Positions 7,279 through 25,639 are shown, counted from the first letter of the stretch. The stretch: DNA of 64,000 bases from Candidatus Methylomirabilia bacterium (GCA_041496385.1 JBGQEL010000012.1:11409-75408); one strand, 5' to 3'. The notes: generated from the sequence alone by a model not told the origin. A program made the numbers and translations.

Positions 7279-7284
7279 TGGAGT

Positions 7285-8481: not shown

Positions 8482-11228
8482 GGGCGCGAGGCGAGGGGGG
8501 CGGACTCGAGGTCGGGCGCGGCGGGTACCGGGCGGGGGCGCTGGCGCAGCAGCACGGGCAGCACGATCAGCGAGGCGACGAGGCTCGTGGCGCTGCCGAG
8601 CGTGAGCAGCAGACCCAGGCCGAAGATGCCGCGGTGGTCGGCGACCATGAGGCTGCCGAAGCCCACGACGTTCGAGAGCCCGTTGACCAGGACCGCCATC
8701 ACCGTGCTGCGGGCGATGAGCGGCCCGCCGTGGTCGCGCCCTTCCATGTAGCGCATCACGATGTTCAGCCCGTACTCGGCGGCGGCGCCGAGGATGAGCG
8801 GGAGCCCGAAGACGTTGCCCATGTTGAACTTCAGGTCGAAGAAGTACATCAGGCCGAAGGTCCAGAGCATCCCGAGGCCCAGCGGCAGGAGCGCCAGGAA
8901 CGTCTCGCGCACGCGGCGCAGCGCGAGGAAGGTGACGAGCGTGACGAGGAGCACCGCGTACACGGTGCCCTCCTTGTACGAGCGCTCCATGAAGCGGATC
9001 GCCTCGAAGGTGACGACGGGCGTGCCGGTCACCTCGGGGTCGACCGAGCGCAGCTCGGTGACGAAGCGGGTCGCGCCCTCGCGGTCCCAGATGTCCACCG
9101 CCGGCTCGATCTGGAGGAGGAACCGCCCCTTGTCGCTGATGAACTTGCGCCGGATCTCCGGCGGCACGTCCTTGAGTCCGATGGTCCGCGGCGCGAGGTT
9201 CCCCTGGAGCCGCTGGAAGCTCTTGACGAAGTCGCCGTAGATCTGGTTCTGCAGCACCGTGAGCGCCGGCTCGCTCACCTCCGGATCGGTCTGGCGCAGG
9301 CGGATCATGAGCCGGTCGATCTCTTCGTTGAGATTCTGCAGGCGCAGCTTCGTGTCGCCCTCCGGGGCCTCGTTCGCGGCGATCCCGAAGCGCCGCCGCA
9401 GCGTCTCGAGCGCGGTGACGAGCCGCTCCCGGTCCACGGGCGTCGCGCGCCCCACGCGCACCGACGCGACGATGGGCGCGAAGTCGCGGATGATCTTCAT
9501 CTTCTCGGCCTGCTCCTCGGGGATCAGCAGGAGGGCCGAGTCGACCCCGGAGACCGTCGGGAGCCGGGCGAACGCCGCCTGTTTCCGGCGGAGCTCGTCG
9601 AGCGTGTCGGCGCTCGCCAGGGCCGTGAAGGCCGAGCGCCCCGCGGTGGCCAGGATGCGTTTCTCCCAGGCGACCGATTCGGTGCCGCGGGCCTGGAGGT
9701 TGAGCAGGTTGTAGTCGAACTGGATGTACATCAGGCCCCAGAGCGACACGCCGGTGATCACGGCCGCGAACGCGAGCACCGACTTCGGATAGCGCACGAG
9801 CCGCTCGACGAGCGGGACGTGCACGCGCTCGAGCGCCAGCGCGCGGGGGATCGCGTTCCCGGAGCGGTTCGCGTGCCGGCGATCCACGAGCACGAGGACC
9901 GCGGGGAAGACGGTCATCATCGAGACCCACGAGAGGAGGATCGCCGTGCCGGCCACGAAGCCGAGCTCCTGGACGCCGCGGAACTCGGTGAGACCGAGCA
10001 CGTAGAAGGTGCCCGCGGCGGTCACCGCGCCGAGCAGCATGCCGGGGCCGCTGCGCGCCGCCGTGATCTCGATCGCCTCCTTGAGGTTCCGGCCGAGGAA
10101 CAGCTCCTCCTCGTAGCGGAAGAGGAAGTAGATGCCGTAGTCGATCCCGATGCCGATGACGATCGAGATGAACATGACCGAGAAGAGCGAGAGGTGACCG
10201 ATGACGAGCGTCGCCGCGCCCAGCGACCAGCACAGACTCACCGTGAGCACGAGCAGCATCAGCAGAGGCTTGCCGACCCGGAGGAAGGCGGCGAGCAGGA
10301 GGCCGAGGATCAGCGCGAAGGCGAGGATCGTCGCGTTCTCGCTGTCGCGGAAGGCCGCCGTCATCTCGTCGTTGGCGAGCGCGGGCTTGCCCGTGACCCC
10401 GACCTCCACGTTCGGGAACTCGCGCTTCAGCGACGCGATCACGGCGCGGACGCCCTCGATCGCGCGCTGGTCGCCCGTGAAGCTGCCGCGCTCGGTCTTG
10501 GGTTCGGCGAGGATGAAGAGGAGCCGTTGGTCGTCGGAGAGGAAGTAGCCGGCGCCCGGGTTGTCGGCCCCGTCGACCGAGAAGAAGGTGCCCCAGGGCG
10601 AGCGGTACGGCGCGGGCCGGTCGAGCCGCGCCGAGATCTGCCCGACGAGGTCTTCGACGAACTTGAAATCGAGCGAGGCCTTGCCGTCGTTGAGACCGAG
10701 GTCGATGAAGCTGGTGACGAACGCGTTCGCGACCTGGGTCGCGACGCCGTCGACGAGCTGGTCCAGGGTAGGGCGGCCCGCGAAGGCCTCCACGAAGTCC
10801 TGGTAGTCGAAGATCTTGTCGCGGATCGCCTCGAGCCTCTCCTTCGAGAGGTAGAGGAGGCCGCGTCCCTCGAACTGCTTGGGGTCGATGCGATACGCCA
10901 CGCGCGCGAGCGGCACCTGATGGACACGCAGCTCGCGGGCGAGGCGCTGCGCGTAGACCGTCGCCTCGGGCAGCGACGGCGCCTGGACGACGATGGCGAG
11001 ATCGTCGAGCTGGCCGAACTCCTTCTCGTACTGCCTGTACTTCTCGACGTACGGCTGGCCGGACGGCAGCAGCCGGAGGGCCGAGGTCTGGAAGGTCATG
11101 GTCGTCAGCGTGTAGACGACCGAGACGACGGCGAGAGCCAGCGCCAGGCCGAGCGTCAGCCAGGGCCGGGCGCACGACAGCCGAACAAGGCGCCGGAGCG
11201 GACGGCCGATGCTTCGGGCGACCGCCAC
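8478..11228 (-). CDS. hpnN: hopanoid biosynthesis-associated RND/MMPL transporter HpnN
   Basis: 916 aa, two ~6-TM bundles with large periplasmic loops, MMPL/RND architecture; GTG start directly abutting the MIPS stop (TAGGTG); sits in an hpn gene neighbourhood. Confidence 0.8.
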   Translation of the reverse strand: MAVARSIGRPLRRLVRLSCARPWLTLGLALALAVVSVVYTLTTMTFQTSALRLLPSGQPYVEKYRQYEKEFGQLDDLAIVVQAPSLPEATVYAQRLARELRVHQVPLARVAYRIDPKQFEGRGLLYLSKERLEAIRDKIFDYQDFVEAFAGRPTLDQLVDGVATQVANAFVTSFIDLGLNDGKASLDFKFVEDLVGQISARLDRPAPYRSPWGTFFSVDGADNPGAGYFLSDDQRLLFILAEPKTERGSFTGDQRAIEGVRAVIASLKREFPNVEVGVTGKPALANDEMTAAFRDSENATILAFALILGLLLAAFLRVGKPLLMLLVLTVSLCWSLGAATLVIGHLSLFSVMFISIVIGIGIDYGIYFLFRYEEELFLGRNLKEAIEITAARSGPGMLLGAVTAAGTFYVLGLTEFRGVQELGFVAGTAILLSWVSMMTVFPAVLVLVDRRHANRSGNAIPRALALERVHVPLVERLVRYPKSVLAFAAVITGVSLWGLMYIQFDYNLLNLQARGTESVAWEKRILATAGRSAFTALASADTLDELRRKQAAFARLPTVSGVDSALLLIPEEQAEKMKIIRDFAPIVASVRVGRATPVDRERLVTALETLRRRFGIAANEAPEGDTKLRLQNLNEEIDRLMIRLRQTDPEVSEPALTVLQNQIYGDFVKSFQRLQGNLAPRTIGLKDVPPEIRRKFISDKGRFLLQIEPAVDIWDREGATRFVTELRSVDPEVTGTPVVTFEAIRFMERSYKEGTVYAVLLVTLVTFLALRRVRETFLALLPLGLGMLWTFGLMYFFDLKFNMGNVFGLPLILGAAAEYGLNIVMRYMEGRDHGGPLIARSTVMAVLVNGLSNVVGFGSLMVADHRGIFGLGLLLTLGSATSLVASLIVLPVLLRQRPRPVPAAPDLESAPLASRP

Positions 11229-12335
11229 CTACTCTTCGCCGGCGATGAACCGCTCGAGGCGCGTGTGGGCGACGTCGTCGGTCCACTGCTCCGGTGGCGA
11301 CTTCATCAGGTAGGCTGACGGCGCGAGGAGCGCCCCCTTGAGCCCGCGGTCCAGCGCCGTCTGGCAGAGGCGAATCGCGTCGATGACGACGCCGGCGGAG
11401 TTCGGCGAGTCCCACACTTCGAGCTTCAGCTCGATGTTGATCGGCTGGTCGCCGAAGCCGCGGCCCTCGAGGCGGATGTGGGCCCACTTGCGGTCCTCGA
11501 GCCACGGCACGTAGTCGCTCGGGCCGATGTGCACGGCGTCGGCCGGGAGCTCGTGACCCAGCTGCGAGCGGACCGAGTCGGTCTTCGAGATCTTCTTCGA
11601 GACGAGTCGGTCGCGGTCGAGCATGTTGTAGAAGTCGGTGTTGCCGCCGAAGTTGAGCTGGCTCGTGCGCTCGAGCCGGACGCCGCGGTCCATGAAGAGC
11701 TTGGTGAGGACGCGGTGGATGATGGTGGCGCCGACCTGCGACTTCACGTCGTCACCGACGACGGGCAGCCCGCGCTCCTCGAAGCGCCTGCGCCAGTAGC
11801 TCTCGCGCGCGATGAAGACGGGGATGCAGTTGACGAACGCGCAGCCCGCTTCGAGGACCTGCTCGACGTACCACTTGGTCGCCATCTCGCTGCCGACCGG
11901 CAGGAAGTTCACGACGACGTTCGTCCGCGTCTCGCGGAGGATGCCGACGATGTCGGCCGTCGAGCCGGGCGCCTTCTTGATCATCTGCGAGAGGTAGTGG
12001 CCGAGGCCGTCGTGCGTCATCCCGCGCTGGACGGGCACGCCGAGGTGCGGCACGGTCGCGAAGCGCACCGTGTTGTTGGGCGGCTGGAAGATGGCCTCGC
12101 CGAGGTCCTTGCCCACCTTGCGCTCGTCGATGTCGAACGCGGCGGAGAACTCGATGTCGCCGACGTGGTAGGCGCCGACCCTCGGATGCATGAGACCCGG
12201 AATGAACTGGTTCTCGGGGGCGTTCCGGTAGTAGTGGACACCCTGGACGAGCGACGATGCGCAGTTGCCGACACCCACGATGGCGACTCGAACGGATCCC
12301 ACGGGCGCCTCCCTCGGCAGGAATACTTTTCGCAC
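11229..12335 (-). CDS. ino1: myo-inositol-1-phosphate synthase (inositol-3-phosphate synthase)
   Basis: 368 aa; N-terminal [16 protein letters not shown] Rossmann motif, NFGGNTDF and surrounding catalytic-region motifs typical of prokaryotic/archaeal MIPS. Confidence 0.8.
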
Positions 12336-12382: not shown

Positions 12383-13579
12383 TCACGGCGCCCCCAGGCT
12401 CGCGCGGAACCGGTCGCGGATCTGGCGCGGCGTGTGCGGGATCCGCGGGACATCCACCTCCTCCGGCGTGACCTTCGCCAGGACGAAGCCCGGCCCCGGC
12501 CCGGCCAGCGCCGCCCGCACCGCGGCGGTGAGCGCGTCGGGCGTCGCGACCGCCGTCGCGACACAGCCCGCGGCGCGCGCGATCCGGTCGAGCCGCACCT
12601 CGCGCGAGGGGGAGGGCTGGTTGCCGGTCGAGCCGTAGACCTCGTTGTCGAAGACGACGTGCACGAAGCGAGGCGGGCGCAGGCTGCCGATCGTCCCGAG
12701 GATGCCGAGGTTCATCAGGAGGTTGCCATCGCCGTCGAAGACGACCGTCCGCTTCTCGGGCCGGACGAGCGCGAGCCCCAGGCCGATCGCCGAGGCGAGG
12801 CCCATCGAGCCGATCATGTAGAAGTTCTGCGGCCGGTCGGCGAGCGAGAAGGACTCGCGGCAGATGTAGCCGTTCGCGTGGATCACGGGCTCGTCGCGGA
12901 GCTGCCCGATGGCGACGCCGAGCGCGTCGCGCCGCGACATCACCGGCCGCAACTCCTCGTCCGCCCCCGCCTGTCCCGAATGAATGCCTGCCACCGGGGC
13001 CGGGGTGGTGGTCGGGGGCGGCCCAGTGGGCGTGTCGTTACCGGCAACGGGGCCGCCCCCCCCCACCCCCCCGGCCCCCCTCACGGCGCCAAGATCGAGG
13101 ACTCCGGGGGGAACGAGGATCGCGACCGGTGCTTCGCGCGCGTCCATTTCGGCGCGCGCCCACTGCAACAGCTCCTCGACTCCCTCTCGGGCGAGGACCC
13201 GATGGGGGATGCCGTGGAGCTCGAGAAGCTGCGGCGTGATCCGGCCCGTCAGGATGTGCTCGGGCGCGTCCTTGCCCTCGAAGCCGCGCCACGTGATCAG
13301 CAGCAGGACGGGGAGGCCGTACATGAGGGAGAGCGAAGCCAGGGCGTTCCCGCACGTGCCGAGCCCGGAGTTCTGCATCAGCACCACGGGCCGCCGCCCG
13401 CCGAGCCACGCGCCCGCGGCGAGCCCGATCGCGGCGTCCTCGCGGGCCGCGGCCACGTACGGCGCGCGCGGGCGGCGCTCGAGCGCCGCGACGAGGTCCT
13501 CGATCAACGAGCAGGGAACGCCGGTGAAGAAATCGAATCCGTGACGCTCGAGCAGCGCGGCGAGCTGGGCGCCCGACAC
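12383..13579 (-). CDS. TPP-dependent decarboxylase, sulfopyruvate/phosphonopyruvate decarboxylase family (fused two-domain form with Gly/Pro/Thr-rich linker)
   Basis: 398 aa; N-terminal TPP pyrimidine-binding domain and C-terminal domain with the GDG-N diphosphate-binding motif (VVFDGDGNLLMNLG), no central domain. This is the ComDE/Ppd architecture. The domains are joined by GAGGVGGGGPVAGNDTPTGPPPTTTPAPVAG. Confidence 0.6.
   Translation of the reverse strand: MSGAQLAALLERHGFDFFTGVPCSLIEDLVAALERRPRAPYVAAAREDAAIGLAAGAWLGGRRPVVLMQNSGLGTCGNALASLSLMYGLPVLLLITWRGFEGKDAPEHILTGRITPQLLELHGIPHRVLAREGVEELLQWARAEMDAREAPVAILVPPGVLDLGAVRGAGGVGGGGPVAGNDTPTGPPPTTTPAPVAGIHSGQAGADEELRPVMSRRDALGVAIGQLRDEPVIHANGYICRESFSLADRPQNFYMIGSMGLASAIGLGLALVRPEKRTVVFDGDGNLLMNLGILGTIGSLRPPRFVHVVFDNEVYGSTGNQPSPSREVRLDRIARAAGCVATAVATPDALTAAVRAALAGPGPGFVLAKVTPEEVDVPRIPHTPRQIRDRFRASLGAP
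13055..13080. repeat. homopolymeric tract C9-A-C7-GG-C6 inside the TPP-decarboxylase CDS (encodes GGVGGGGP on the minus strand)
   Basis: Plus-strand gccccccccc a ccccccc gg cccccc. Reverse-complement translation gives GAVRGAGGVGGGGPVAG, matching the ORF. Confidence 0.7.
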
Positions 13580-13613
13580 TATGCCCGGGGGTGCGCGCGC
13601 GGGCCCGGGGCGC

Positions 13614-14252
13614 TCACTTCTGCGAGGTGCGTCGCGCCTGCTCCTCGTGGAACTCGTCCTGCTTGGTCTTCATCTTCCGGACGAGCTCCTGGTAGGACGA
13701 CGTCGTGATGATCTTGTTGAACTGGGCGCGGTAGTTCGCGATGAGGCTCACGCCCTCGATGACGACATCGTAGACGAGCCACCGATCGCCACTGCGTCGC
13801 AGCATCCGGTACTCCACGGGGATGTCGGTGCCGTCCTTGGTGACGAGCTTGCTCCGGACGATCGCCTGATCGTCGTCGATGGTCTCGCCGGTGTACGTGA
13901 TCTTCTCGCCGCCGTAGATCTCGATCCTGGAGATGTACGAGCGCTCCAGGAGGTCGGCGAAGAGGGCGACGAACTCCTCGCGCTCCGCGGCCGTCCGCGA
14001 CGCCCAGTGGCGCGCCAGCGAGCGTTTCGCGGTCTCGCCGAAGTCGAAGACCTCGTTGGCGATCTTGCGGACGGCCGCGCGCCGCTCCCTGACCCGGGTC
14101 TCCTTCTTGAGCTCGGGATCCTCGAGCAGTCGCATGACCCGCTCGATCTGGGCCTTGAGCTGCTCCGTGGGCGGGCCCGCCCACGCCGGGGCCGCGTCCA
14201 GCAGCAGCAGGACGGCGGCGGCACAGACGAGGCCCCGGCTCCGTGGCGTCAT
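13614..14252 (-). CDS. hpnM: MlaC/Ttg2D-family periplasmic lipid-binding protein (HpnM-like)
   Basis: 212 aa with signal peptide (AAAVLLLLDAAPAWAG); Ttg2D/MlaC-like fold motifs; the hopanoid-associated member of this family is HpnM. Confidence 0.65.
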   Translation of the reverse strand: MTPRSRGLVCAAAVLLLLDAAPAWAGPPTEQLKAQIERVMRLLEDPELKKETRVRERRAAVRKIANEVFDFGETAKRSLARHWASRTAAEREEFVALFADLLERSYISRIEIYGGEKITYTGETIDDDQAIVRSKLVTKDGTDIPVEYRMLRRSGDRWLVYDVVIEGVSLIANYRAQFNKIITTSSYQELVRKMKTKQDEFHEEQARRTSQK

Positions 14253-14262
14253 CGAGGATCTC

Positions 14263-14703
14263 CTAAACTTTGCCGAAGATGTACTTGGATAGCAGCTCCT
14301 CGAAGTCGACGGGCGCCTCGACCTCGCGGATCCGGCCGTTCGGCTTGATGATCCGATCCGAGCCTCCGGGGCTGATCCGGAGGTATTTCTCGCCGATCAG
14401 CCCCTTGGTCTTGATCGAGGCGATCGAATCCTCCTGCAGCTTCACGCCCTCGTTGATCCGCAGCGTCACGCGCGCCTGGTAGTCCACCAGACCGATTGCC
14501 TCGATGCGCCCGATCTCGACGCCCGCGATCTCGACGGTCGAGCCCGCCTTCAGTCCGCCCACCGCGGGAAAATCCGCGGTGACGACGTAGGCGCCGCCGC
14601 CGAGCAACGAAACCCGCCCGAGTTTAATCGATAGATACCCCAATGCCAAGATCCCGATCAGCACGAACAGCCCCACCGCGATGTTGACGCGCGACCGCTC
14701 CAT
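14263..14703 (-). CDS. MlaD-like MCE-domain protein
   Basis: ORF 14263..15165; protein starts at internal ATG 14703-14701 (MERSRVNIAVGLFVLIGILALGYL...), one N-terminal TM segment plus MCE domain. Start overlaps the upstream stop by 1 nt (TGATG). Confidence 0.7.
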   Translation of the reverse strand: MERSRVNIAVGLFVLIGILALGYLSIKLGRVSLLGGGAYVVTADFPAVGGLKAGSTVEIAGVEIGRIEAIGLVDYQARVTLRINEGVKLQEDSIASIKTKGLIGEKYLRISPGGSDRIIKPNGRIREVEAPVDFEELLSKYIFGKV

Positions 14704-15446
14704 CAGCTTCCCTCCGAGTCTTCCGGGACGCCCCGGATGAACTGGCTCACGACCGGGTTCTGGGACGCCTGGATCGCCGCCGGGGGGCCGACCTCGACGA
14801 TCCGACCCTCGTGCAGCATGGCGACGCTGTCGGCGATCTCGAAGATCTCCGGGATCTCGTGACTCACCATGACGGCCGTGAAGCGGTACTTCCGGTGGAG
14901 ATCGAGGATCAGGTGGTGGATCGTGTTGACGAGCACCGGATCGAGCCCGGTCGTCGGCTCGTCGAAGAAGACGATCTCGGGCTCGATGACGAGCGCGCGC
15001 GCGATCGCCACGCGCTTGCGCATGCCGCCGGACACCTCGGCCGGATACTTGTGGCCCATGCCCTCCAGGCCGACCTGCTGGAGCCCGGCCTCGACGCGCT
15101 TGACCACCTCCGCCGCGGGCAGCCGGAGCTTCTCGCGCAGGGGGAAGGCGACGTTGCCCGCGCACGTCATCGAGTCGAAGAGCGCGCCCCCCTGGAACAC
15201 GACGCCGTAGCGCCGCCGGATGTCGTCGAGCGCGCGGCCGCGGAGACCGGTGATCTCGACGCCGTCCACGAGCACGCGGCCCGCGTCGGGGCTCAGCAGG
15301 CCGATCAGGTGCTTGAGGAGCACCGACTTGCCGCCGCCGCTCCGCCCGATGATCACCGTGATCGAGCCGGTCGCCATCTCGAGGTCGAGGCCGCGGAGCA
15401 CCGGCTGGCCGCCGAACGACTTCACCAGCCCCTCGACCACGATCAT
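14703..15446 (-). CDS. MlaF-like ABC transporter ATP-binding protein
   Basis: 247 aa; Walker A GRSGGGKS, ABC signature LSGGMRKRVAIARAL, Walker B IVFFDEPT. Confidence 0.8.
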   Translation of the reverse strand: MIVVEGLVKSFGGQPVLRGLDLEMATGSITVIIGRSGGGKSVLLKHLIGLLSPDAGRVLVDGVEITGLRGRALDDIRRRYGVVFQGGALFDSMTCAGNVAFPLREKLRLPAAEVVKRVEAGLQQVGLEGMGHKYPAEVSGGMRKRVAIARALVIEPEIVFFDEPTTGLDPVLVNTIHHLILDLHRKYRFTAVMVSHEIPEIFEIADSVAMLHEGRIVEVGPPAAIQASQNPVVSQFIRGVPEDSEGS

Positions 15447-15533
15447 GGACTCGCCTCGGACGGCGGGGCCCCAGCCCCGCGACGCCCTGCGGCTCGCGCG
15501 GCCACGATCATCGGCTCGCCTCGGACGGCGGGC

Positions 15534-16328
15534 TCACGGCAGCACCGAGCCCAAGAAGTAGTCCCAGACCAGGATCAGGACCGAGGAGAGCACGACCGCG
15601 TCCGTCGTCGCCTTGGCGACGCCCTCGGCGCCGTGCCCGACGTTGAAGCCCTTGTAGGTGCAGACCCACATGACGATCACGCCGAAGGACAGCGACTTCC
15701 AGAAGCCGGTCATGATGTCCTTCATGTCGACGAAGGTCTGCATCTCGCCGAAGTACGTGCCCTGGGACAGCCCCAGCAGCTCGACGCCCACGAGGTAGCC
15801 GCCGAAGATGCCGACCGTGTCGAAGATTGCCGTCATCAGCGGGAAGGTCACGATGCCGGCGAGGATGGACGGCGCCACGAGATAGCGCATGGGGTTGAGC
15901 GCCATGACGGTGAGCGCGTCGATCTGCTCGGTGATGCGCATGATCCCGATCTCGGCGGTGAGCGCCGAGCCGGCGCGGCCCGTCACCATGAGCGCCGCGA
16001 GCACGGGACCCAGCTCGCGGATGATCGAGAGCGCGACGGCCGGGCCGAGGTACGCCTCGGAGCCGAAGCGGACGAGCGTCAGGTAGACCTGGAGCCCGAG
16101 GACCATGCCGGTGAAGGAGCCGGTCAGGAGGATGATCAGGAGCGATCGGTAGCCGACGTAGTGGATCCGGTCGATGAACGCCCGGAGCTTGAACGGCGGA
16201 GTCAGGAGCGCGCCCAGCGCCTCGCCCAGGAAGCTGCCGAAGCGACCGAGCGCCTCGACGATCGCGATCGCCCAGCGGCCGAGGGCGTCGAGCGGGGCCA
16301 GCGCCAGCGGGAGCGGCCGCTCAGTCAT
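15534..16328 (-). CDS. MlaE-like ABC transporter permease
   Basis: C-terminal 264 codons of ORF 15534..17684, from ATG 16328 (MTERPLPL...). MlaE/Ttg2B-type permease pattern (ITEQIDAL.VMALNP). ATG overlaps the shc stop (ATGA). Confidence 0.75.
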   Translation of the reverse strand: MTERPLPLALAPLDALGRWAIAIVEALGRFGSFLGEALGALLTPPFKLRAFIDRIHYVGYRSLLIILLTGSFTGMVLGLQVYLTLVRFGSEAYLGPAVALSIIRELGPVLAALMVTGRAGSALTAEIGIMRITEQIDALTVMALNPMRYLVAPSILAGIVTFPLMTAIFDTVGIFGGYLVGVELLGLSQGTYFGEMQTFVDMKDIMTGFWKSLSFGVIVMWVCTYKGFNVGHGAEGVAKATTDAVVLSSVLILVWDYFLGSVLP

Positions 16329-18244
16329 CGCTGGACGCTGCGGTAGACCCCGAGCGCCCAGAGGGGGAAGTACTTCGCGTAGAGGTGGTACTTGAGGTAG
16401 AAGACGCGCGGGAATCCCGTGCCGTTCCAGAGCCGATCGTCCCAGGAGCCGTCGGGCTGCTGCGCCTGCAGGAGATAGAGGACGCCGCGCTCGATGGCGC
16501 GGCCGCCCGTCCGGCCCGCGGCGAAGAGCGCCAGGAGCGCCCAGGCGGTCTGGCTCGGCGTCGACTCGCCGCTCCCGGCCAGCTCGGCGTCGTCGTAGCT
16601 CTCGCAGGTCTCGCCCCAGCCGCCGTCGGGGTTCTGTTGCCGCTCGAGCCAGCGGACCGCCCGCTGCACGTACTCGTGGCGCAGATCCTCGCCGATCGCC
16701 CTCAGGCCGCGGAGCACCGACCACGTTCCGTAGATGTAGTTGACGCCCCAGCGGCCCTCCCAGGGCCCGTCGTGCCGCTGCGCGTGGCGCAGAAAGTGGA
16801 TCGCGCGCCGCGCCGGCTCGAAGTCCGTGCCGTAACCCAGCGTGCCGAGGAGCTCGAGCCCGCGCCCCGTGAGGTCCTCCGTCGAGGGGTCGAGCAGCGC
16901 TCCGTGATCGGCGAAGGGGATGTTGTTCAGATAGAGGCGGTTGTTGTCGGCGTCGAACGAGCCCCAGCCGCCGTCCTCGCCCTGCATGCCGAGGAACCAG
17001 CCGAGGCCGAGCTCCTTCGCCGTCTGGGCGGCGTCGCCGTCGAGACCCCGCACCTTCTCCAGCGCCATCAGGACCATCGCCGTGTCGTCGAGGTCGGGAT
17101 AGAAGTCGTTGCGGTACTGGAACGCCCAGCCGCCGGGTTTCACGTGCGGCCGCTTCACCTGCCAGTCGCCCGGCACGAGCACCTGACGGTCGATGAGCCA
17201 CTCGGCGGCGCGCCGCAGCGTCGGGTCCTCGGGCGCGACTCCGCTCTCGACCAGCGCGTTGACGGTGAGCGCCGTGTCCCAGACGGGCGACGGGCAGGGC
17301 TGATAGTGAATCTCCTCGCCCTCCTCGACCGCGAGCGCCTCGATCTCCTTGATCTGCCCCATGACCAGCGGGTGATCGTCGGGGTAGCCCAGCAGCCGCA
17401 TCGCCAGGATCGAGTTGGCCATCGCCGGATAGATGCCGCCCAGGCCGCCGGGGACGGCGAGCCGCTCCTCGAGCCAGAGACGCGCCGCGTCGACCGCCCG
17501 CTTCCGGAGCGGGCGCTTCGTGAACCGCTCCCAGATCTTCAGGCCGTCGTCCACCGAGACGAAGAAGTTCTTCCAGAAGAGCTTGCGCCAGCTGAAGGGC
17601 TCCGGCACCCGCGGGAAGCGCAGGCTCGTCCGCTCGCGCGAGTCCGGCCAGAGCTCGTCGAGCGAGAGGTGGGGCGGGAGCCACTTCACCGGCTTGCGGT
17701 CCATGATGATCAGGAGGGGCACGATGACGGTCCGCGACCAGTACGAGACCTCGTAGATATTGAAGAGGAAGAAGGGGCGCGGCAGCAGCATGATCTCGAC
17801 CGGCATCGCGGGCACGCCGTTCCAGTCGTACTCGCCGAAGAGCGCCAGCAGGATCTTGGTGAAGACGTCGCTCTTCACGGGCCCGCCCATGTCGTGGATC
17901 CGCCCGCGCGCCGCCACCATCGCGGGGTCGTCCACGCCGACACCGGCCAGCTTCATCGCGAAGTAGGCCTTGATGGTCGCCGACAGATTCGACGGGCCGT
18001 CCTCGAAGAGGTTCCAGCCGCCGTCCGGGAGCTGGCGGCGGCGGAGGTAGTGGACGGCCTTGGCCTCGCGCTTGCGGTCCACACGGTCGATCAGGTGGCA
18101 GAGCAGGAGGAACTCGGACGTGATGGTCGTGTTGGCCTCGAGCTGGCCGACCCAGTGACCGTCGGGGGCCTGATGCGCCAGGAGCCAGGACTGGGCGCGC
18201 GCGATCGCGTCGGTGAGGGCCGTCACGAGGGCTGATGGTAACAT
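16325..18244 (-). CDS. shc: squalene-hopene cyclase
   Basis: 639 aa; DxDDTA catalytic motif (DLDDTAMVLMAL) and multiple QW repeats; N-terminus MLPSALVTALTDAIARAQSWLLAHQAPDGHW. Confidence 0.9.
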   Translation of the reverse strand: MLPSALVTALTDAIARAQSWLLAHQAPDGHWVGQLEANTTITSEFLLLCHLIDRVDRKREAKAVHYLRRRQLPDGGWNLFEDGPSNLSATIKAYFAMKLAGVGVDDPAMVAARGRIHDMGGPVKSDVFTKILLALFGEYDWNGVPAMPVEIMLLPRPFFLFNIYEVSYWSRTVIVPLLIIMDRKPVKWLPPHLSLDELWPDSRERTSLRFPRVPEPFSWRKLFWKNFFVSVDDGLKIWERFTKRPLRKRAVDAARLWLEERLAVPGGLGGIYPAMANSILAMRLLGYPDDHPLVMGQIKEIEALAVEEGEEIHYQPCPSPVWDTALTVNALVESGVAPEDPTLRRAAEWLIDRQVLVPGDWQVKRPHVKPGGWAFQYRNDFYPDLDDTAMVLMALEKVRGLDGDAAQTAKELGLGWFLGMQGEDGGWGSFDADNNRLYLNNIPFADHGALLDPSTEDLTGRGLELLGTLGYGTDFEPARRAIHFLRHAQRHDGPWEGRWGVNYIYGTWSVLRGLRAIGEDLRHEYVQRAVRWLERQQNPDGGWGETCESYDDAELAGSGESTPSQTAWALLALFAAGRTGGRAIERGVLYLLQAQQPDGSWDDRLWNGTGFPRVFYLKYHLYAKYFPLWALGVYRSVQR

Positions 18245-18271: not shown

Positions 18272-19075
18272 ATGGATCTAGTCCTCGAAACCATCGCCCT
18301 GCGTCCTTACGTCTTCGGCTTCATGGCGGCGTTTCTCATCGCCGGCTGCCTCGACCTCGGGTGGCGGCGGACGCTCCTGTTCGGGGCCGTGGTCTCGCCG
18401 ATCGCGTGGCTCGCGGAGTTCTCCTCGACGCGCACGGGGATTCCGTTCGGGCTCTACACCTACACCGGCGCGACGCGCGGCGCGGAGCTCTACGTCGCCG
18501 ACGTGCCGTTCATGGACTCGATCTCGTTCGCCTTCCTCGCGTACGCCGCGTTCTGCCTGGCCCGCGCGGCCCTCGCGCGCCGGTCGCCCGGCCGCTGGGC
18601 GCTCGCCCTGAGGACGGGAGTGCTCATGATGGCGCTCGACGTCGTCATCGACCCGCTGGCCGTCCGCGGCGACCGCTGGTTTCTCGGACGGATCTTCTAC
18701 TACGCCGACGGCGGCGCGTACTTCGGCGTGCCCCTGTCGAACTTCGCGGGATGGGTCCTCGTCGGCGCCGTGGCAGTCGGCCTCTATCTGCTTCTGCCGG
18801 GGTCCGCGAGGCCGGCGCCAACCGCGGGTGGCCGGCAATGGGCACACGGGGCTCCCCTCGCGATGTCCCCCGTCGGCGAACGTGTCTGGCCGGGAGTCGC
18901 GCTATACTACGTCGTGCTCGGATTCAATTTGGCCGTGACCGCGTGGATCGGCGAATGGATGCTGGTCGCTCTCGGGTCCGCGCTCCACGCCGCGGTCGCC
19001 GTGGCCATCCGCTACGCGGGCCGGGAACACCGGGAGGCCCCGGTCATCCCGAGCCGGGGAGTTCAGCGCGCATGA
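18272..19075 (+). CDS. polytopic membrane protein, DUF422 / carotenoid-biosynthesis-protein-like (family uncertain)
   Basis: 267 aa, ~7 hydrophobic segments; divergent from shc; its stop overlaps the hpnH start (ATGA). Confidence 0.5.
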   Translation: MDLVLETIALRPYVFGFMAAFLIAGCLDLGWRRTLLFGAVVSPIAWLAEFSSTRTGIPFGLYTYTGATRGAELYVADVPFMDSISFAFLAYAAFCLARAALARRSPGRWALALRTGVLMMALDVVIDPLAVRGDRWFLGRIFYYADGGAYFGVPLSNFAGWVLVGAVAVGLYLLLPGSARPAPTAGGRQWAHGAPLAMSPVGERVWPGVALYYVVLGFNLAVTAWIGEWMLVALGSALHAAVAVAIRYAGREHREAPVIPSRGVQRA

Positions 19076-20094
19076 GCGTTCCGATCTCGCAGATGTGGGC
19101 CGTCGCCTCGTACGTCCTGGGGCAGCGCCTCCGGGGCCACGCGCGGTACCCGCTCGTGCTCATGCTCGAGCCGCTGTTCCGGTGCAACCTGGCGTGCGCC
19201 GGCTGCGGCAAGATCCAGTACCCGGCGCAGATTCTCCGCAAGCACCTGACCGTCGAGCAGTGCCTCGCCGCGGTCGAGGAGTGCGGCGCGCCGATGGTGT
19301 CGATCCCGGGGGGCGAGCCGCTCATGTATCCGGACATCGGGCCGCTCGTGAAGGCGCTCGTCGCCCGCAAGAAGTACGTCTACCTCTGCACCAACGCGAT
19401 CCTGCTGAAGGAGAAGCTCGAGGCCGGCCTGTTCGAGCCGTCCAAGTACCTCTCGTTCAGCGTGCACATGGACGGGCTGCGCGAGGAGCACGACGAGGCC
19501 GTCTGCCGCGACGGCGTCTACGACCAGGCGGTGGAAGGGATCCGCGCGGCACTCCGGCGGGGCTTCCGCGTGACGACGAACACGACGCTCTTCGACGGCG
19601 GGAACCCCCTGCGCATGCGCGAGTTCTTCGACGCCATGATGGACCTCGGCGTCGAGGGAATGATGATCTCGCCGGGCTACAGCTACTCGAAGGCGCCCGA
19701 CCAGGAGCACTTCCTCCGTCGCCAGCGCGCCCACGAGCTGTTCGGGACGATGCTCGGGAACCCGAAGAAACGCTGGAAGTTCAACCAGTCCCCGCTCTTC
19801 CTCCAGTTCCTCATGGGCAAGCAGGAGTTCGAGTGCACGCCCTGGGGGAACCCGACCTACAACATGTTCGGCTGGCAGCGCCCCTGCTACCTCCTGCAGG
19901 AGGGATACGCGAAGACCTTCCGCGAGCTGATCGAGACGACGCGGTGGGAGCAGTACGGGCGCAAGAGCGGCAACGAGAAGTGCCGCGACTGCATGGTCCA
20001 CTGCGGCCACGAGCCGACGGCGGTGCACCACACCTTCAGCTCGTGGCGCGGCCTGCGCGACACGGTCGTCACGACGGTCACGGGCCGCCTCTAG
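19072..20094 (+). CDS. hpnH: adenosylhopane synthase, radical SAM HpnH
   Basis: C-terminal 340 codons of ORF 18361..20094, from ATG 19072 (MSVPISQMWAVASYVLGQRLRG...). YPLVLMLEPLFRCNLACAGCGKIQ radical-SAM region is characteristic of HpnH. Confidence 0.85.
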   Translation: MSVPISQMWAVASYVLGQRLRGHARYPLVLMLEPLFRCNLACAGCGKIQYPAQILRKHLTVEQCLAAVEECGAPMVSIPGGEPLMYPDIGPLVKALVARKKYVYLCTNAILLKEKLEAGLFEPSKYLSFSVHMDGLREEHDEAVCRDGVYDQAVEGIRAALRRGFRVTTNTTLFDGGNPLRMREFFDAMMDLGVEGMMISPGYSYSKAPDQEHFLRRQRAHELFGTMLGNPKKRWKFNQSPLFLQFLMGKQEFECTPWGNPTYNMFGWQRPCYLLQEGYAKTFRELIETTRWEQYGRKSGNEKCRDCMVHCGHEPTAVHHTFSSWRGLRDTVVTTVTGRL

Positions 20095-20103
20095 CCCCCG
20101 GCG

Positions 20104-20433
20104 ATGACGGACGAGGCGCTCGAGGGCTGGGCCCCGCGGATCGGCGACGGGATCACGCTCGAGGAGGTCGTCGAGCAGGCCTTCGACTACCGCGGCAACG
20201 TCACGCTCGTGAAGACCGACGGCTCCGAGCTCGAGGGCTACCTGTTCAACCGCAGCCGCGACGTCGGCGAGCCCTTCGTCCAGATCTTCGACCTCGCCGG
20301 CGTCGGCCCCCACGACGTCCGCTACGCCGACATCCGCACCATCCGCTTCACGGGCAAGGACACGGCGGCCGGGAACTCGTACGCGGCCTGGCTCCGCGCC
20401 AAGGAGTCCAAGAAGCCGGCCTCGGGCGCGTGA
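20104..20433 (+). CDS. hypothetical protein (109 aa) embedded in hpn operon
   Basis: Intact ORF 10 nt after the hpnH stop, acidic N-half; its stop overlaps the hpnG GTG start (GTGA). No family recognised. Confidence 0.5.
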   Translation: MTDEALEGWAPRIGDGITLEEVVEQAFDYRGNVTLVKTDGSELEGYLFNRSRDVGEPFVQIFDLAGVGPHDVRYADIRTIRFTGKDTAAGNSYAAWLRAKESKKPASGA

Positions 20434-21110
20434 CACACGTCGCCGTCTTCACCGCCGTCGAGCTCGAGGCCCGCACGCTCGCGCGGCTGCTCGGCCTGCC
20501 TCGCGTCGCGGGCGCCGCGTGGCCGCACTTCGGCGCGGGCGCCCTGGAGATCGTCTGCGCCGGTCCCCGCGCGCGCTTCCTCGACGACCGCGCGCGGGGG
20601 CTGGCGGCCCCCACGCTGGTCGTCTCGGCGGGCGTCTGCGGCGCGCTCTCGCCGGACCTGCGCGAGGGCGATCTGGTCGTGCCCGCGACCGTCCTCGGCC
20701 CGGCGGGCGAGCGCCACGCCACCGCCGAGCTTGCCGGGCTGCCGCGCGCGGGCGCGCTGGCGAGCGTGAGGGACGTGGTCGCGACGCCGGCGGCGAAGGC
20801 GCGCCTCTGGGTCGAGACGCAGGCCCTCGCGTGCGACATGGAATCGGCGGCCATCCTCGCGTGGGCGGGCGCGCGCGGGATCCCGGCCGCGGTGATCCGC
20901 GGCGTCAGCGACGCGGCGGACCGGGGCGTGCCGCGAGACCTCGCGGCGGTCGTCGAGCCCGACGGGCGCGTCCACACCGCGCGCGCGGTGCGCGCGATGC
21001 TCGCGCGGCCGCGCGCGATCGCCGACGCGATGACGCTGCGGACCGGCACCGGCGCCGCGCTGAAGGCCGTCGCGCAGGCGTTGGGCCGCCTCGCGAGGCA
21101 CCGGGCGTGA
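20430..21110 (+). CDS. hpnG: hopanoid-associated nucleosidase/phosphorylase HpnG (PNP/MTAN family)
   Basis: In-frame part of ORF 19095..21110, from GTG 20430 (VTHVAVFTAVELEARTL...). PNP/MTA-nucleosidase-type fold motifs (AVIRGVSD) in the expected position between hpnH and hpnA. Confidence 0.7.
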   Translation: MTHVAVFTAVELEARTLARLLGLPRVAGAAWPHFGAGALEIVCAGPRARFLDDRARGLAAPTLVVSAGVCGALSPDLREGDLVVPATVLGPAGERHATAELAGLPRAGALASVRDVVATPAAKARLWVETQALACDMESAAILAWAGARGIPAAVIRGVSDAADRGVPRDLAAVVEPDGRVHTARAVRAMLARPRAIADAMTLRTGTGAALKAVAQALGRLARHRA

Positions 21111-22114
21111 TCGCGCTGGTCACGGGCGGCACCGGGTTCGTGGGGGCCAACCTCGTGCGCGAGCTCCTCCGGGACCGGCGCGCCGTGCGCGTCCTCGCGC
21201 GGCCGGGCGGCGATCGGCGCGCGCTGGCCGGGCTCGACGTCGAGATCTGCGAGGGCGACCTGCTCGATCCTGCCTCGCTCCGCCGCGCGGTGCGGGGCGC
21301 GGACACGATCTTCCACGTCGCGGCCGACTACCGCCTGTGGGCGCGCGACCCCGGCGAGATGCACCGCGCGAACGTGGGCGGCACGCGCGCCATCCTCGAG
21401 GCGGCGGCGGAGCACGGCGCGCGGCGCGTGGTCTACACGTCGACGGTCGGCGCCCTCGGCATCCCGAAGGACGGCTCGCCGGGCACGGAGGACACGCCGG
21501 TCTCGCTGCGCGACATGGTCGGCCCGTACAAGACGTCGAAGTTCATCGCCGAGCAGGTGGCGCTGGGCTTCGCGCAGCAGGGTCTGCCGCTGGTGATCGT
21601 GAACCCTTCGGCGCCCGTCGGCCCGTGGGACGTGAAGCCCACGCCGACCGGGCAGATGATCGTGGATTTCCTCAGCGGCCGGATGGTCGCGACGCTCGAC
21701 ACGGGGCTCAACCTGATCCACGTGCGCGACGTCGCGCGCGGGCACATCCTCGCGGCCGAGCGCGGTCGCGTCGGCGAGAAGTACATCCTCGGCCACGCGG
21801 ACCTGTCCCTCGCCGAGATCGGGCTGCTCCTCTCCGAGGTCACCGGGATCCGTCCGCCGCGCCTCCGGGTCCCCTACGCGGTGGCCTGGCTCGCGGCCGC
21901 GTCCATGGAGGCGGCGGCCCGGCTGACGGGCGGCGCGCCCCGGGTGCCGCTGACCGCGGTGCGCATGGCGAAGAAGCGCATGTACTTCAGCGCGGCCCGG
22001 GCGGTGCGCGAGCTGGGGCTGCCGCAGACCGACGTGCGCGAGGCGCTGCGCGACGCGGCGGAGTGGTTTTCGGCGCGCGGCTATGTCAAGCTCCCGGCGA
22101 GGCAGACGGCATGA
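21107..22114 (+). CDS. hpnA: hopanoid-associated NAD-dependent sugar epimerase/dehydratase HpnA
   Basis: From GTG 21107 (VIALVTGGTGFVGANLVREL...); Rossmann GxxGxxG and YxxxK (YKTSK) SDR-extended motifs; GTG overlaps the hpnG stop. Confidence 0.75.
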   Translation: MIALVTGGTGFVGANLVRELLRDRRAVRVLARPGGDRRALAGLDVEICEGDLLDPASLRRAVRGADTIFHVAADYRLWARDPGEMHRANVGGTRAILEAAAEHGARRVVYTSTVGALGIPKDGSPGTEDTPVSLRDMVGPYKTSKFIAEQVALGFAQQGLPLVIVNPSAPVGPWDVKPTPTGQMIVDFLSGRMVATLDTGLNLIHVRDVARGHILAAERGRVGEKYILGHADLSLAEIGLLLSEVTGIRPPRLRVPYAVAWLAAASMEAAARLTGGAPRVPLTAVRMAKKRMYFSAARAVRELGLPQTDVREALRDAAEWFSARGYVKLPARQTA

Positions 22115-22998
22115 TCGCCGACCTCGCCGCGCGGCTCACCCGGAAGAGCCGGTCGAACTTCTACTACGCGTTCCTCGCGCTGCCGCGGCCGCGCCGCGAG
22201 GCGCTCTACGCCGTCTACGCGTTCTGCCGCACGGTCGACGACATCGCCGACCTGGGCGGCGCGCGGGGCGGGGGTCCGGCGGCGCAGCGGGACGAGCTCG
22301 CCCGCTGGCGCGCGGACGTCCTGCGCTGCTACACCCCCGACGGCTCGCCCGAGCATCCGCTCGCGCGCCGGCTCCAGGCCGCGGTGCGCGCCTTCGCGAT
22401 CCCGCGCGAGGCGCTGCTGGCGATCATCGAGGGCGTCGAGATGGACCTCGACCGGGTCGTGTACGAGACCGCCGAGGACCTCTATCCCTACTGCTATCGC
22501 GTCGCGTCGGCCGTCGGCCTCTGCTGCATCGAGATCTTCGGCTACACCGACCCCCGCGCGCGCGAGTACGCCGTCCGCCTCGGCACGGCGCTCCAGCTCA
22601 CGAACATCATCCGTGACGTCGGCGCGGATGCGCGCGACGGCCGCGTGTACCTGCCGCTGGAGGATCTCCGCAAGTTCGGCGTCACCGTCGACGACCTCCG
22701 CACGGGACGCTACGGCGAGCCCTTCGTCGCGCTCATGGCCCACCAGGCGGAACGCGCCCGGCGGTTCTACCGGCTCGCGCGGGAGAGCTTCCCGGCGGCC
22801 GACGCGCGCGCGCTCGTGCCCGCCGAGATCATGGGGCGCATCTACCGGGCGCTCCTCGAGGAGATCGAGGCGCGCCGCTTCCGCGTCTTCGACCGGCGGA
22901 TCACCGTACCGGCGCGGCGGAAGGTCGCCATCGCCCTCGTCTGCTGGGCGTCGGCCCGGATGGCCGCGCGCGCGGCGGGACGGCCGGGGGCCGCATGA
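22111..22998 (+). CDS. squalene/phytoene synthase family protein (HpnC/HpnD-like)
   Basis: From ATG 22111 (MIADLAARLTRKSRSNFYYAF...). Asp-rich motifs YAFCRTVDDIAD and NIIRDVGADARDGRVYLP; ATG overlaps the hpnA stop (ATGA). The only member of this family in the window. Confidence 0.75.
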   Translation: MIADLAARLTRKSRSNFYYAFLALPRPRREALYAVYAFCRTVDDIADLGGARGGGPAAQRDELARWRADVLRCYTPDGSPEHPLARRLQAAVRAFAIPREALLAIIEGVEMDLDRVVYETAEDLYPYCYRVASAVGLCCIEIFGYTDPRAREYAVRLGTALQLTNIIRDVGADARDGRVYLPLEDLRKFGVTVDDLRTGRYGEPFVALMAHQAERARRFYRLARESFPAADARALVPAEIMGRIYRALLEEIEARRFRVFDRRITVPARRKVAIALVCWASARMAARAAGRPGAA

Positions 22999-24005
22999 TC
23001 GCCGCCGTCCTGCGCGAGGGAGGGCGGCTCGCCGCCGAGGAGTGGCCCCGCCCGTCGATCGGCGCCGGCGAGGTGCTGCTCCGCCTCCGGGGCTGCGGCC
23101 TCTGCGGCTCGGACATCGCGAAGATCGTGGACCCGCGGACGCCCGTGCCGCTCGTGCTGGGCCACGAGGTCGTCGGCGAGGTGGCGGCGACGGGCGCCGG
23201 CGTGACGGACTACGCGATCGGTGACCGCGTCGCCGCGGCGCACCACGTGCCCTGCGGCGACTGTCACTACTGCCGGCGCGGCAGCGAGTCCATGTGCCGC
23301 ACCTTCAAGGCGTCGAACCTCGACCCCGGCGGCTTCGCCGAGTACGTCCGGATCCCGGAGCCGAACGTGCGGCACGCCATGTTCCGCGTGCCGCGGCACG
23401 TGAGCGACGAGGCGGCCTCGTTCGTCGAGCCGCTGGCGTGCTGCCTGCGCTCCCTGCGGCGCGCGCGCGTCGAGCGCGGCGACACGACCGTGGTGGTCGG
23501 GCTCGGCTCGATCGGCTGCCTGTTCGTCCAGCTCCTCGCGAACGCCGGCGTGCGCGTCGTCGGCTGCGACCCGGTCGCCGACCGCGCGGACGTCGCCAGG
23601 CGGATGGGCGCCGTGGCCGCCGGAGGGGCCGAGGTCGCCGTGGCGGCGCAGCGCGAGCTCTCCGAGGGCCGCGGCGCCGACCAGGTCATCGTGACCGGCG
23701 GCGGCGTGGACGTCCTGCCCTGGGCGGCCGACGTCCTGCGCGACGGCGGCAGCGTCCACTACTTCGCCGGCGGCGCGGGCGACGCGCTGCCGCTCCGGCT
23801 CGAGACGCTCTATCACCGCGAGCTCACTGTCACCGCGACCTACTCGTCCTCGCCCGCCGACCTCGCGGAGGCCTTCCGGCTCATCGCGAGTGGCGCGGTC
23901 GCGCCCGAGCGGCTCGTCACCCACCGGCTCTCGCTCGGCGGCCTGCACCGCGGCGTGGAGCTGATGCGCCGCCGCGAGGCGCTCAAGGTGTACGTGACGC
24001 CGTGA
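22995..24005 (+). CDS. Zn-dependent alcohol/polyol dehydrogenase (MDR family) 1
   Basis: 336 aa; catalytic Zn ligands (C..GHE), structural-Zn cysteines CGDCHYCRRGSESMC, GLGSIG Rossmann; ATG overlaps the upstream stop (ATGA). Confidence 0.75.
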   Translation: MIAAVLREGGRLAAEEWPRPSIGAGEVLLRLRGCGLCGSDIAKIVDPRTPVPLVLGHEVVGEVAATGAGVTDYAIGDRVAAAHHVPCGDCHYCRRGSESMCRTFKASNLDPGGFAEYVRIPEPNVRHAMFRVPRHVSDEAASFVEPLACCLRSLRRARVERGDTTVVVGLGSIGCLFVQLLANAGVRVVGCDPVADRADVARRMGAVAAGGAEVAVAAQRELSEGRGADQVIVTGGGVDVLPWAADVLRDGGSVHYFAGGAGDALPLRLETLYHRELTVTATYSSSPADLAEAFRLIASGAVAPERLVTHRLSLGGLHRGVELMRRREALKVYVTP

Positions 24006-25027: not shown

Positions 25028-25626
25028 CGAAGCTGATGGTCTCCGCGGTGGCGCTCGTGGCCCTCGCGACGCTGGCCGCGCCGGCGCGGGCCTTCGACGC
25101 CGCGGACACCTTCAGGAAGGGCACGCTCGTCCTCTCCGGCGAGGGCAGCTACGGCGAGCAGTTCAACCTCGAGCGGTTCCGCGTCCAGAGCGACATCAAG
25201 TTCTTCAACCTGGGGTTCCGATCCTCGCTCCTGCCCTTCGAGCCCTTCGCCGCCGGGAGCGCCGCGCACGGCGCGCTCGAGATCGGGCTCGAGCCGCTCT
25301 ACCAGCGCTACACGGAACCCCAGACCGCCTTCTGGGCCGGCGTCGCGGCGGTCTTCCGCTACCACTTCCTGGCGCTCGGCCGCGTCGTCCCGTACGCGGA
25401 GCTCGCCGCGGCCGCGGGCGGCACCGACCTCCACGTGCGGGAGATCGACTCGGACTTCTCGTTCCTCCTGTTCGGCGGCCTCGGCGCGTCGGTCTTCGTC
25501 ACCGACTCGACCGCGCTCTACGCCGGCTACCGGTACGAGCACAACTCCAACGGCAACACGGCCACGCCGAACCGGGGCTGGGAGTCGCACGTGGGCGTGG
25601 TCGGCGTGTCGTACTATTTCCGCTGA
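25024..25626 (+). CDS. outer-membrane beta-barrel protein, lipid A deacylase PagL-like
   Basis: 200 aa; signal peptide MTKLMVSAVALVALATLAAPARA; C-terminal aromatic YYFR; H-x-S-N-G (EHNSNGN) resembling the PagL catalytic His/Ser motif. ATG overlaps the upstream stop (ATGA). Confidence 0.45.
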   Translation: MTKLMVSAVALVALATLAAPARAFDAADTFRKGTLVLSGEGSYGEQFNLERFRVQSDIKFFNLGFRSSLLPFEPFAAGSAAHGALEIGLEPLYQRYTEPQTAFWAGVAAVFRYHFLALGRVVPYAELAAAAGGTDLHVREIDSDFSFLLFGGLGASVFVTDSTALYAGYRYEHNSNGNTATPNRGWESHVGVVGVSYYFR

Positions 25627-25639
25627 GGCGGGGGGGCCG

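Follow-up and report, generated by a model that had tools for sequence, protein, structure and literature searches.

An Mla-type lipid-transport module embedded in the hopanoid gene cluster of Rokubacteria

How hopanoids reach the outer membrane and how they are balanced in it is an open question, and only the pump HpnN has been implicated experimentally. For proteobacteria, a route made up of HpnN, HpnM (MlaC-like) and HpnS (MlaA-like)/HpnT was proposed from microsynteny and AlphaFold 3 (Lawrence et al., 10.1101/2025.07.29.667474). In this preprint, the Mla-like carriers HpnM and HpnS are proposed to complete the proteobacterial route, the extra MlaC-like and MlaA-like copies lie by hpnN, and an ordinary mla operon is located elsewhere. 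The dataset of the preprint included only five Rokubacteriales genomes, and neither its text nor its supplementary files mention mlaE, mlaF or mlaD beside shc, the gene for squalene-hopene cyclase. No published description linking any of these three genes with shc was found in the literature searched, and a phylogenomics paper on the Mla system of Veillonella contains nothing on Rokubacteria. Here we analyze a stretch of 64,000 nucleotides (nt) from Candidatus Methylomirabilia bacterium (GCA_041496385.1, JBGQEL010000012.1:11409-75408; hereafter, the window), in which genes for MlaE, MlaF, MlaD and an MlaC-family carrier follow shc on the minus strand at positions 13,614 to 18,244. From gene order and homology, we consider it fairly likely that this cluster holds the ancestral, and probably the only, Mla lipid-shuttle module of Rokubacteria, embedded in the middle of a hopanoid and envelope-lipid operon.

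The window has a base composition of about 70–75% G+C, and third-position G+C was the criterion separating real genes from spurious open reading frames (ORFs). Family calls were made by NCBIfam and Pfam profile scans of the window proteins. The operon is a string of nine minus-strand genes, namely shc, mlaE, mlaF, mlaD, the MlaC-family gene and the genes for a thiamine diphosphate (ThDP)-dependent decarboxylase, inositol-3-phosphate synthase, an HpnN-like transporter and a glycosyltransferase, with intergenic gaps of -4, 87, -1, 10, 34, 47, 0 and -4 nt, in this order. The first gene, shc (16325..18244), encodes a protein of 639 amino acids (aa) with 762.9 bits to TIGR01507 (cut-off 431.1); this equivalog score, together with the DxDD catalytic motif present as DLDDTA in the translation, identifies it as a squalene-hopene cyclase. 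The gene mlaE (15534..16328, minus strand) encodes a 264-aa permease of an ATP-binding cassette (ABC) transporter (TIGR00056, 262 bits, cut-off 212.2; PF02405, 266 bits), which is matched by the MlaE chains in PDB with E=1e-52 to 1e-60. The next gene, mlaF (14703..15446, minus strand), encodes a 247-aa ABC ATPase matching PF00005 (ABC_tran), in whose translation the Walker A (GRSGGGKS), signature (SGGM) and Walker B (FFDEPT) motifs are intact. Its top NCBIfam match is MlaF (NF008809) at 188.8 bits, against an equivalog cut-off of 441, and the gene stands beside mlaE in the operon. The product of mlaD (14263..14703, minus strand) has 146 aa with one MCE domain and an N-terminal membrane anchor (TIGR04430, 140.9 bits, cut-off 135; PF02470, 76 bits). 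The 212-aa MlaC-family periplasmic lipid-binding protein (13614..14252, minus strand) scored 159 bits with PF05494 (cut-off 26) and shows a signal peptide ending in AWA|G in the translation. It reached only 35 bits with the enterobacterial MlaC equivalog NF011697 (cut-off 195), and PDB MlaC chains match it with E=1e-8 to 1e-12. All five genes are real and intact.

An earlier note on this stretch, made from the sequence alone, had read an overlap of the shc stop with the mlaE start and a 1-nt overlap between mlaF and mlaD. Both readings were reproduced: the TGA of shc and the ATG of mlaE overlap as ATGA, and the mlaF stop and mlaD start share one nucleotide (TGATG). The gap between mlaD and the MlaC-family gene measures 10 nt and not the 11 nt given there, and the 87-nt spacer between mlaE and mlaF goes unmentioned in the note. 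Such overlapping or near-touching junctions imply, at the level of predicted expression, a single transcript with translational coupling. A promoter/terminator scan revealed no terminator-like sites within 7000–19500 and a single promoter-like site, which lies inside mlaD and is within chance expectation. The description of the Mla system as complete holds for its inner-membrane and periplasmic parts, but no gene for MlaB or MlaA is present. Every gap in the operon is at most 87 nt, with no extra ORF inside it for MlaB (the STAS-domain partner), and two outgroup MlaA queries matched nothing by tblastn, neither in the window nor among 87 Methylomirabilota loci. No further Mla-type genes were found elsewhere in the window.

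The relatives were scanned using one genome per GTDB species and an MlaC-family motif seed (a 22-sequence alignment; an 82-sequence one was too diverse), which yielded 80 loci, all apparently from Methylomirabilota. These loci, and five more found by exact protein look-up, were searched by tblastn with the window proteins and split into two classes. The homologues of MlaE and MlaC with 67–100% identity came from soil and groundwater metagenomes and from metagenome-assembled genomes (MAGs) named Candidatus Rokubacteria, Rokuibacteriota, Methylomirabilota and NC10, and the window was assigned to a Rokubacteria (Methylomirabilota) genome. Class 1 comprises about 50 loci, with MlaC identity to the window ranging from about 55% to 77% and Shc identity falling to 67%. 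On the contigs that are long enough, the order is hpnD-hpnA-hpnG-hpnH-cruF and, divergently, shc-mlaE-mlaF-mlaD-mlaC-(ThDP enzyme)-ino1-hpnN, where ino1 is the inositol-3-phosphate synthase gene. In 44 of the 45 loci with an adjacent shc, the stop of this gene and the start of mlaE overlap by 1, 4, 8 or 10 nt. Because the same order recurs in about 50 independent related loci and the overlap in nearly all of those with shc in place, neither is due to chance. Furthermore, seven loci lack shc at this site (L024, L025, L048, L053, L061, L072 and L083), and there mlaEFDC is still found between the cruF-like gene and ino1/hpnN; hence, the linkage of mlaEFDC is to the cluster and not to shc alone. 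The shc-less loci form one subclade, in the genomes of which the cyclase gene must sit elsewhere or be missing.

The linkage between the Mla genes and the hopanoid cluster is real and conserved and, as far as we could find, undescribed. The earlier note had assigned mlaEFD and the MlaC-family gene to the hopanoid cluster and had asked for synteny in relatives, where a position beside shc that was not conserved would have counted against it. The position is conserved, and the assignment is upheld by the overlap with shc, the strand shared with the HpnN-like exporter and the retention of the arrangement across Rokubacteriales.

The origin of the module can be judged from operons outside the phylum, where the closest relatives of the MlaC-family protein belong to Nitrospirota. 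On two Nitrospirota MAG contigs, L088 (GCA_016214855.1) and L170, an mlaE-mlaF-mlaD-mlaC operon is accompanied by a convergent mlaA and surrounded by thiamine, purine, glutamine-synthetase and HtrA genes. All four genes are collinear with those of the window, the identities being 64% for MlaE, 59% for MlaF, 53% for MlaD and 53% for MlaC. A third Nitrospirota MlaC copy (P0524, on L089) is an orphan without mla neighbours. A scan of metagenomes built around low-G+C sequences from outgroups gave 12 loci with usable flanks, 11 of which had mlaEFDC without any hopanoid gene within 10 kb, and mlaA was placed beside mlaC by tblastn in about 19 outgroup loci. By identity and collinearity, the mlaEFDC genes of the cluster are orthologous to these ordinary mlaEFDC operons.

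The class 2 loci represent MlaC paralogues in the same Rokubacteria genomes and are devoid of mlaE, mlaF, mlaD or hpn neighbours (L008, L012, L027, L043-L046, L049, L052, L058, L059, L063, L064, L067, L070, L073-L076, L078, L079 and L085-L087). Such extra genes number two to four in Rokubacteria genomes, fall into at least four sequence groups and include some tandem pairs; the genome CAVUPM01, for example, contains a single class 1 locus besides two of class 2. No lipid-transport genes were found beside the orphan MlaC genes, whose neighbours encode a Calx-beta protein, fumarase, MoxR ATPase, PBP1 and a formate-dehydrogenase-like protein. The Calx-beta repeat protein, which adjoins one orphan group, is giant (1,500–2,300 aa). 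Both the identity tables and a neighbour-joining tree place the orphan copies within the phylum, and the cluster MlaC is the Methylomirabilota copy closest to the outgroup MlaC. A search for further copies of mlaE and mlaD, covering the window and the fetched Rokubacteria loci (about 1.3 Mb), gave none.

The carrier had been named HpnM in the earlier note, and we rejected this label. Its score with the HpnM model TIGR03481 is 85.3 bits, far below the cut-off of 160.1, and equals those of the controls: orphan Rokubacteria paralogues reached 75–100 bits, and two Nitrospirota MlaC proteins, P0412 from an mla operon and the orphan P0524, 92–94 bits. Thus, the model fails to separate the cluster protein from ordinary MlaC. 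The gene is the copy inside the mlaEFD operon and not an extra HpnM-type copy, and the extra copies have no hopanoid genes around them. Nor is HpnM represented by the top two PDB matches, 11hy and 2qgu. Taken together, the collinear outgroup orthologues, the cluster MlaC being nearest to the outgroup, the lack of a second mlaE or mlaD in the sampled DNA and the non-specific HpnM score indicate that an ordinary, ancestral mlaEFDC operon was probably captured into the hopanoid operon, or that the hopanoid genes were assembled around it, and that the module is probably not a hopanoid-specific duplicate.

Based on these data, we propose the following scheme for the work of the cluster. The module would form an inner-membrane ABC complex of the MlaE2F2D6 type that works with MlaC as its periplasmic carrier; it includes no MlaB, and no mlaA lies beside it. 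Synthesis of the cyclase would automatically bring the Mla machine and the HpnN-like resistance-nodulation-division (RND) pump. As all of them would be made together, hopanoid production, hopanoid export and ATP-driven inter-membrane lipid exchange would be tuned together. The Mla module would keep its general task, in which MlaC carries glycerophospholipids between outer and inner membrane, and it may additionally accept hopanoids. It should be noted that the direction of Mla transport is debated: retrograde movement is argued for in PMC5016091 and 10.1101/2021.05.25.445566 and export in 10.1101/388546. The most economical interpretation is an outer-membrane lipid unit that co-expresses hopanoid synthesis, an RND exporter of the hopanoid type, ATP-driven lipid shuttling and lipid A remodelling. 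We count in its favour that the cluster also carries non-hopanoid envelope genes, which encode PagL and a glycosyltransferase resembling monogalactosyldiacylglycerol (MGDG) synthase.

Several observations weigh against the interpretation of the module as a general lipid shuttle. The overlap with shc, kept over such large divergence, is tighter than loose co-regulation requires, and the position between shc and the HpnN-like pump fits the prediction of a shared substrate. On a metagenome contig from outside Rokubacteria with 52% G+C (L107, Ga0315282_10019566), mlaF-mlaD-mlaC-mlaA converges with shc-hpnG-hpnA, and an IS110 transposase gene comes next; this adjacency of Mla genes and shc in a different arrangement is a hint that the link recurs. 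A division of substrates among the carriers is one possible meaning of the extra MlaC paralogues. In addition, the counts of mlaE, mlaD and mlaA cover the sampled loci, so a second housekeeping Mla system may exist.

Some of these observations also speak for a dedicated ABC route for hopanoids, in which the MlaFED complex and the MlaC-like carrier of the cluster are specialised for these lipids. The Rokubacteria MlaFED-MlaC system would then itself be a hopanoid transporter, produced in stoichiometric amounts with the cyclase and working as a pair with the HpnN-like pump for outer-membrane delivery and retrieval, and the orphan MlaC proteins would bring other lipids, such as phospholipids, to the same complex. 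Such a system would be the first ABC/MCE-type hopanoid trafficking system. The junction overlap that shc and mlaE show in 44 of the 45 loci, the location of the module between shc and the HpnN-like gene on one predicted transcript, and the independent adjacency in L107 agree with this explanation, and the clusters of proteobacteria likewise recruit Mla-type parts, HpnM and HpnS (10.1101/2025.07.29.667474). However, the module is orthologous and collinear with ordinary outgroup mlaEFDC operons, the MlaC of the cluster has diverged least among the copies, and the roughly 1.3 Mb sampled revealed no other mlaE or mlaD to which the orphan carriers could dock. Moreover, the HpnM score is non-specific and below the cut-off, and MlaD passes the cut-off of the ordinary MlaD equivalog. 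We therefore regard specialisation for hopanoids as unlikely, and the transporter role of MlaFED-MlaC outlined above as similarly doubtful. The view of the earlier note that the Mla machinery is dedicated to the hopanoid cluster is accordingly retained in part: the machinery is located in the cluster and conserved there, but the word "dedicated" is countered by its orthology to ordinary mlaEFDC(+mlaA) operons and by the fact that no second mlaE or mlaD was seen. The accompanying statement that only HpnM is cluster-associated in model hopanoid producers needs correction as well, since the MlaA-like HpnS is also cluster-associated in proteobacteria (10.1101/2025.07.29.667474).

The hopanoid and envelope-lipid cluster extends over about 5.5–26.6 kb of the window, and the remainder contains unrelated sulfur-oxidation and tricarboxylic acid cycle genes. 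Downstream of the MlaC-family gene, after 34 nt, the operon continues with the gene for the ThDP-dependent decarboxylase (12383..13579, minus strand), which is of the phosphonopyruvate/sulfopyruvate decarboxylase type (TIGR03297, 289 bits, cut-off 312; TPP_enzyme_N and TPP_enzyme_C domains). About half of the related loci encode a homologue of this enzyme downstream of the carrier gene, adjacent to it in some and farther away in others. The gene ino1 (11229..12335, minus strand) follows (TIGR03450, 514 bits, cut-off 638; PF01658 match), and it was found in most related loci with a long enough downstream flank. The gene of the HpnN-like RND/MMPL transporter (8478..11228, minus strand, 916 aa) begins directly after the ino1 stop and, like shc and mlaEFDC, is a minus-strand gene of the hopanoid cluster. 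Among families, this protein matches HpnN best, although the score is below the cut-off (TIGR03480, 563 bits, cut-off 751.85; NF052374, 362 bits, cut-off 1100), and MMPL and sterol-sensing Pfam domains are present. The gene located 34 nt downstream of the carrier gene, taken for hpnN in the earlier note, is thus the ThDP decarboxylase gene, and the HpnN-like gene is found 2.4 kb past the carrier gene, after ino1. The last gene of the operon encodes the MGDG-synthase-like glycosyltransferase (7285..8481, minus strand; PF06925 match), and its ATG overlaps the TGA of the HpnN-like gene (ATGA). Convergent with the operon is hpnJ (5554..7041, plus strand) for a hopanoid-associated B12-binding radical S-adenosylmethionine protein (TIGR03471, 788 bits, cut-off 578).

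On the other side of shc, a divergent gene encodes a CruF/Caroten_synth-like membrane protein (18272..19075, plus strand; PF04240, 98 bits). The start codons of the two genes are 27 nt apart, and almost all related loci have retained the cruF-like gene in this position. Being a carotenoid-hydratase-like enzyme encoded among hopanoid genes, its product might use the side chain of hopene as a substrate. The divergent hopanoid operon (19072..22998, plus strand) consists of hpnH (TIGR03470, 527 bits), a 109-aa ORF, hpnG (TIGR03468, 108 bits, below the cut-off), hpnA (TIGR03466, 453 bits) and hpnD (TIGR03465, 308 bits). The ORF between hpnH and hpnG (20104-20433) has no Pfam or NCBIfam match and is probably a real gene with very high third-position G+C; relatives carry an ORF of 109–122 aa at this position. 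The far end of the cluster (22995..26632, plus strand) contains genes for two Zn-dependent alcohol dehydrogenases, pagL for a lipid A 3-O-deacylase (25024-25626) and ispH (25640-26632), and the order is the same in the related MAG L003, where pagL likewise stands between the dehydrogenase genes and ispH. Lipid A remodelling thus seems to share its location with the hopanoid genes. The top NCBIfam match of the first dehydrogenase, the only one of the two scanned against this database, is scyllo-inosose 3-dehydrogenase.

Judged by their predicted products, ino1 and the genes for the ThDP enzyme, the Zn-dependent dehydrogenases, HpnJ and the glycosyltransferase look like a pathway for a cyclitol/inositol head group of a hopanoid or another membrane lipid. 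The Mla module might mainly serve a lipid made by the operon itself, such as an inositol or sugar polar lipid or a hopanoid head group formed with Ino1, the ThDP enzyme, the Zn-dependent dehydrogenases and the glycosyltransferase, instead of bare hopanoids or bulk phospholipids. The presence of ino1 downstream of the MlaC-family gene in most loci with sufficient flank and the overlap of the glycosyltransferase start with the HpnN-like stop are in line with this idea. However, about half of the loci have no downstream homologue of the ThDP enzyme, nothing ties the pockets of the MlaC-family proteins to such a lipid, and the argument from outgroup orthology applies here equally, which makes such a function quite improbable. 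Finally, that an essential housekeeping operon came to lie next to shc by chance and was inherited within one order without any functional link is very improbable, for although all close examples come from one phylum and 11 of the 12 outgroup loci have no hopanoid genes near mla, the module lies in the interior of the operon and not at its edge, the overlap with shc persists while Shc falls to 67% and MlaC to about 55% identity, the module is kept in the cluster also at sites that shc has left, and a second arrangement exists in L107.

Some variation was observed within the mlaEFDC genes themselves. The 87-nt spacer between mlaE and mlaF (region 15443..15533, minus strand) carries a direct repeat of about 32 nt of the mlaF ribosome-binding and start region, and this repeat gives rise to an upstream ORF of 22 codons (MIVAARAAGRRGAGAPPSEASP) with a TGA that overlaps the genuine ATG of mlaF. 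In relatives, this gap ranges from -4 to +51 nt, apart from two loci with 185 and 196 nt, and is -4 nt in about half. Genes identical to those of the window were found in the NCBI assembly GCA_041484465.1 and in three metagenome contigs of the Joint Genome Institute. The spacer is identical in three independent assemblies, so an assembly error is ruled out. A gene for a TolC-family outer-membrane protein (PF02321) is inserted between mlaD and mlaC in L010, L016, L019, L021 (~8440-9990), L091 (6526-7881), L093, L096 and L100, which span some Rokubacteria and some low-G+C outgroup lineages. In the operons with this insertion, no mlaA match was found in any fetched flank, which suggests that the TolC-family protein is an alternative outer-membrane partner for Mla. 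It is also worth noting that the typical Rokubacteria cluster occurs on contigs from public soil MAG bins that bear the names Nitrosotalea and Nitrosocosmicus (the two being archaea), Binatia, Limnocylindria, Gemmatimonadales and Verrucomicrobiia (L048, L069, L009, L034, L025, L020 and L041); these contigs are probably mis-binned.

An ordinary Mla machine whose genes overlap that of the cyclase, and probably share its transcript, across a whole phylum-level lineage provides independent genomic evidence linking Mla-type shuttling with hopanoid production. Concrete candidates for hopanoid binding are available in the one cluster-encoded MlaC and the several orphan paralogues. If the module of the cluster is the sole Mla system, the upkeep of lipid asymmetry in the outer membrane and hopanoid synthesis would be regulated as a unit, together with PagL. 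To our knowledge, no member of Rokubacteria has been cultured, so functional tests must be heterologous. In the NCBI taxonomy, Candidatus Rokuibacteriota is a candidate phylum with only environmental-sample and unclassified entries.

Among the described systems, the proteobacterial HpnN/HpnM/HpnS route resembles the Rokubacteria cluster in that Mla-type proteins are encoded near an HpnN-type RND pump, and a periplasmic carrier step for hopanoids is suggested in both. The difference is that the Rokubacteria cluster holds the inner-membrane ABC machinery with its own carrier and no MlaA-like gene, and the extra carriers are encoded elsewhere. The MlaFEDB-MlaC-MlaA systems of Escherichia coli, Acinetobacter baumannii and Pseudomonas aeruginosa (solved structures include 6xbd, 7ch8, 6z5u and 8oj4) share with the window MlaE, a single-MCE MlaD and the MlaC carrier, and the ATPase of the window is a putative MlaF; the window MlaE and MlaD pass the NCBIfam cut-offs. 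In contrast to them, the gene order in the window is E-F-D-C and not F-E-D-C-B, and MlaB is missing. A gene for MlaA was detected neither in the window nor at any Rokubacteria locus, MlaD is short with its 146 aa, and the operon lies within a hopanoid cluster, where it overlaps shc. Closest outside the phylum are the mla operons of Nitrospirota and of other low-G+C lineages (L088, L170, L112, L137 and others), which have the same gene order and likewise lack MlaB, but these have housekeeping surroundings, usually carry mlaA by mlaC and, except for L107, are unlinked to shc.

More distant parallels concern machines for other polycyclic lipids. Mce4 imports cholesterol. The mycobacterial Mce systems are related to the window only at the family level, its MlaE matching YrbE chains (PDB 8fed) with E=1e-20 to 1e-23; they differ in having six MCE proteins and in working as importers. 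The HpnN-like protein matches BstA of the BstA/B/C sterol transporters of Methylococcus at 296 bits, likewise at the family level; the model cut-off is reached neither here nor for the Mce systems. By analogy, the Mce and Bst systems show that MCE-ABC and RND machines, the two kinds of transporter encoded together with the cyclase in Rokubacteria, can handle rigid polycyclic lipids.

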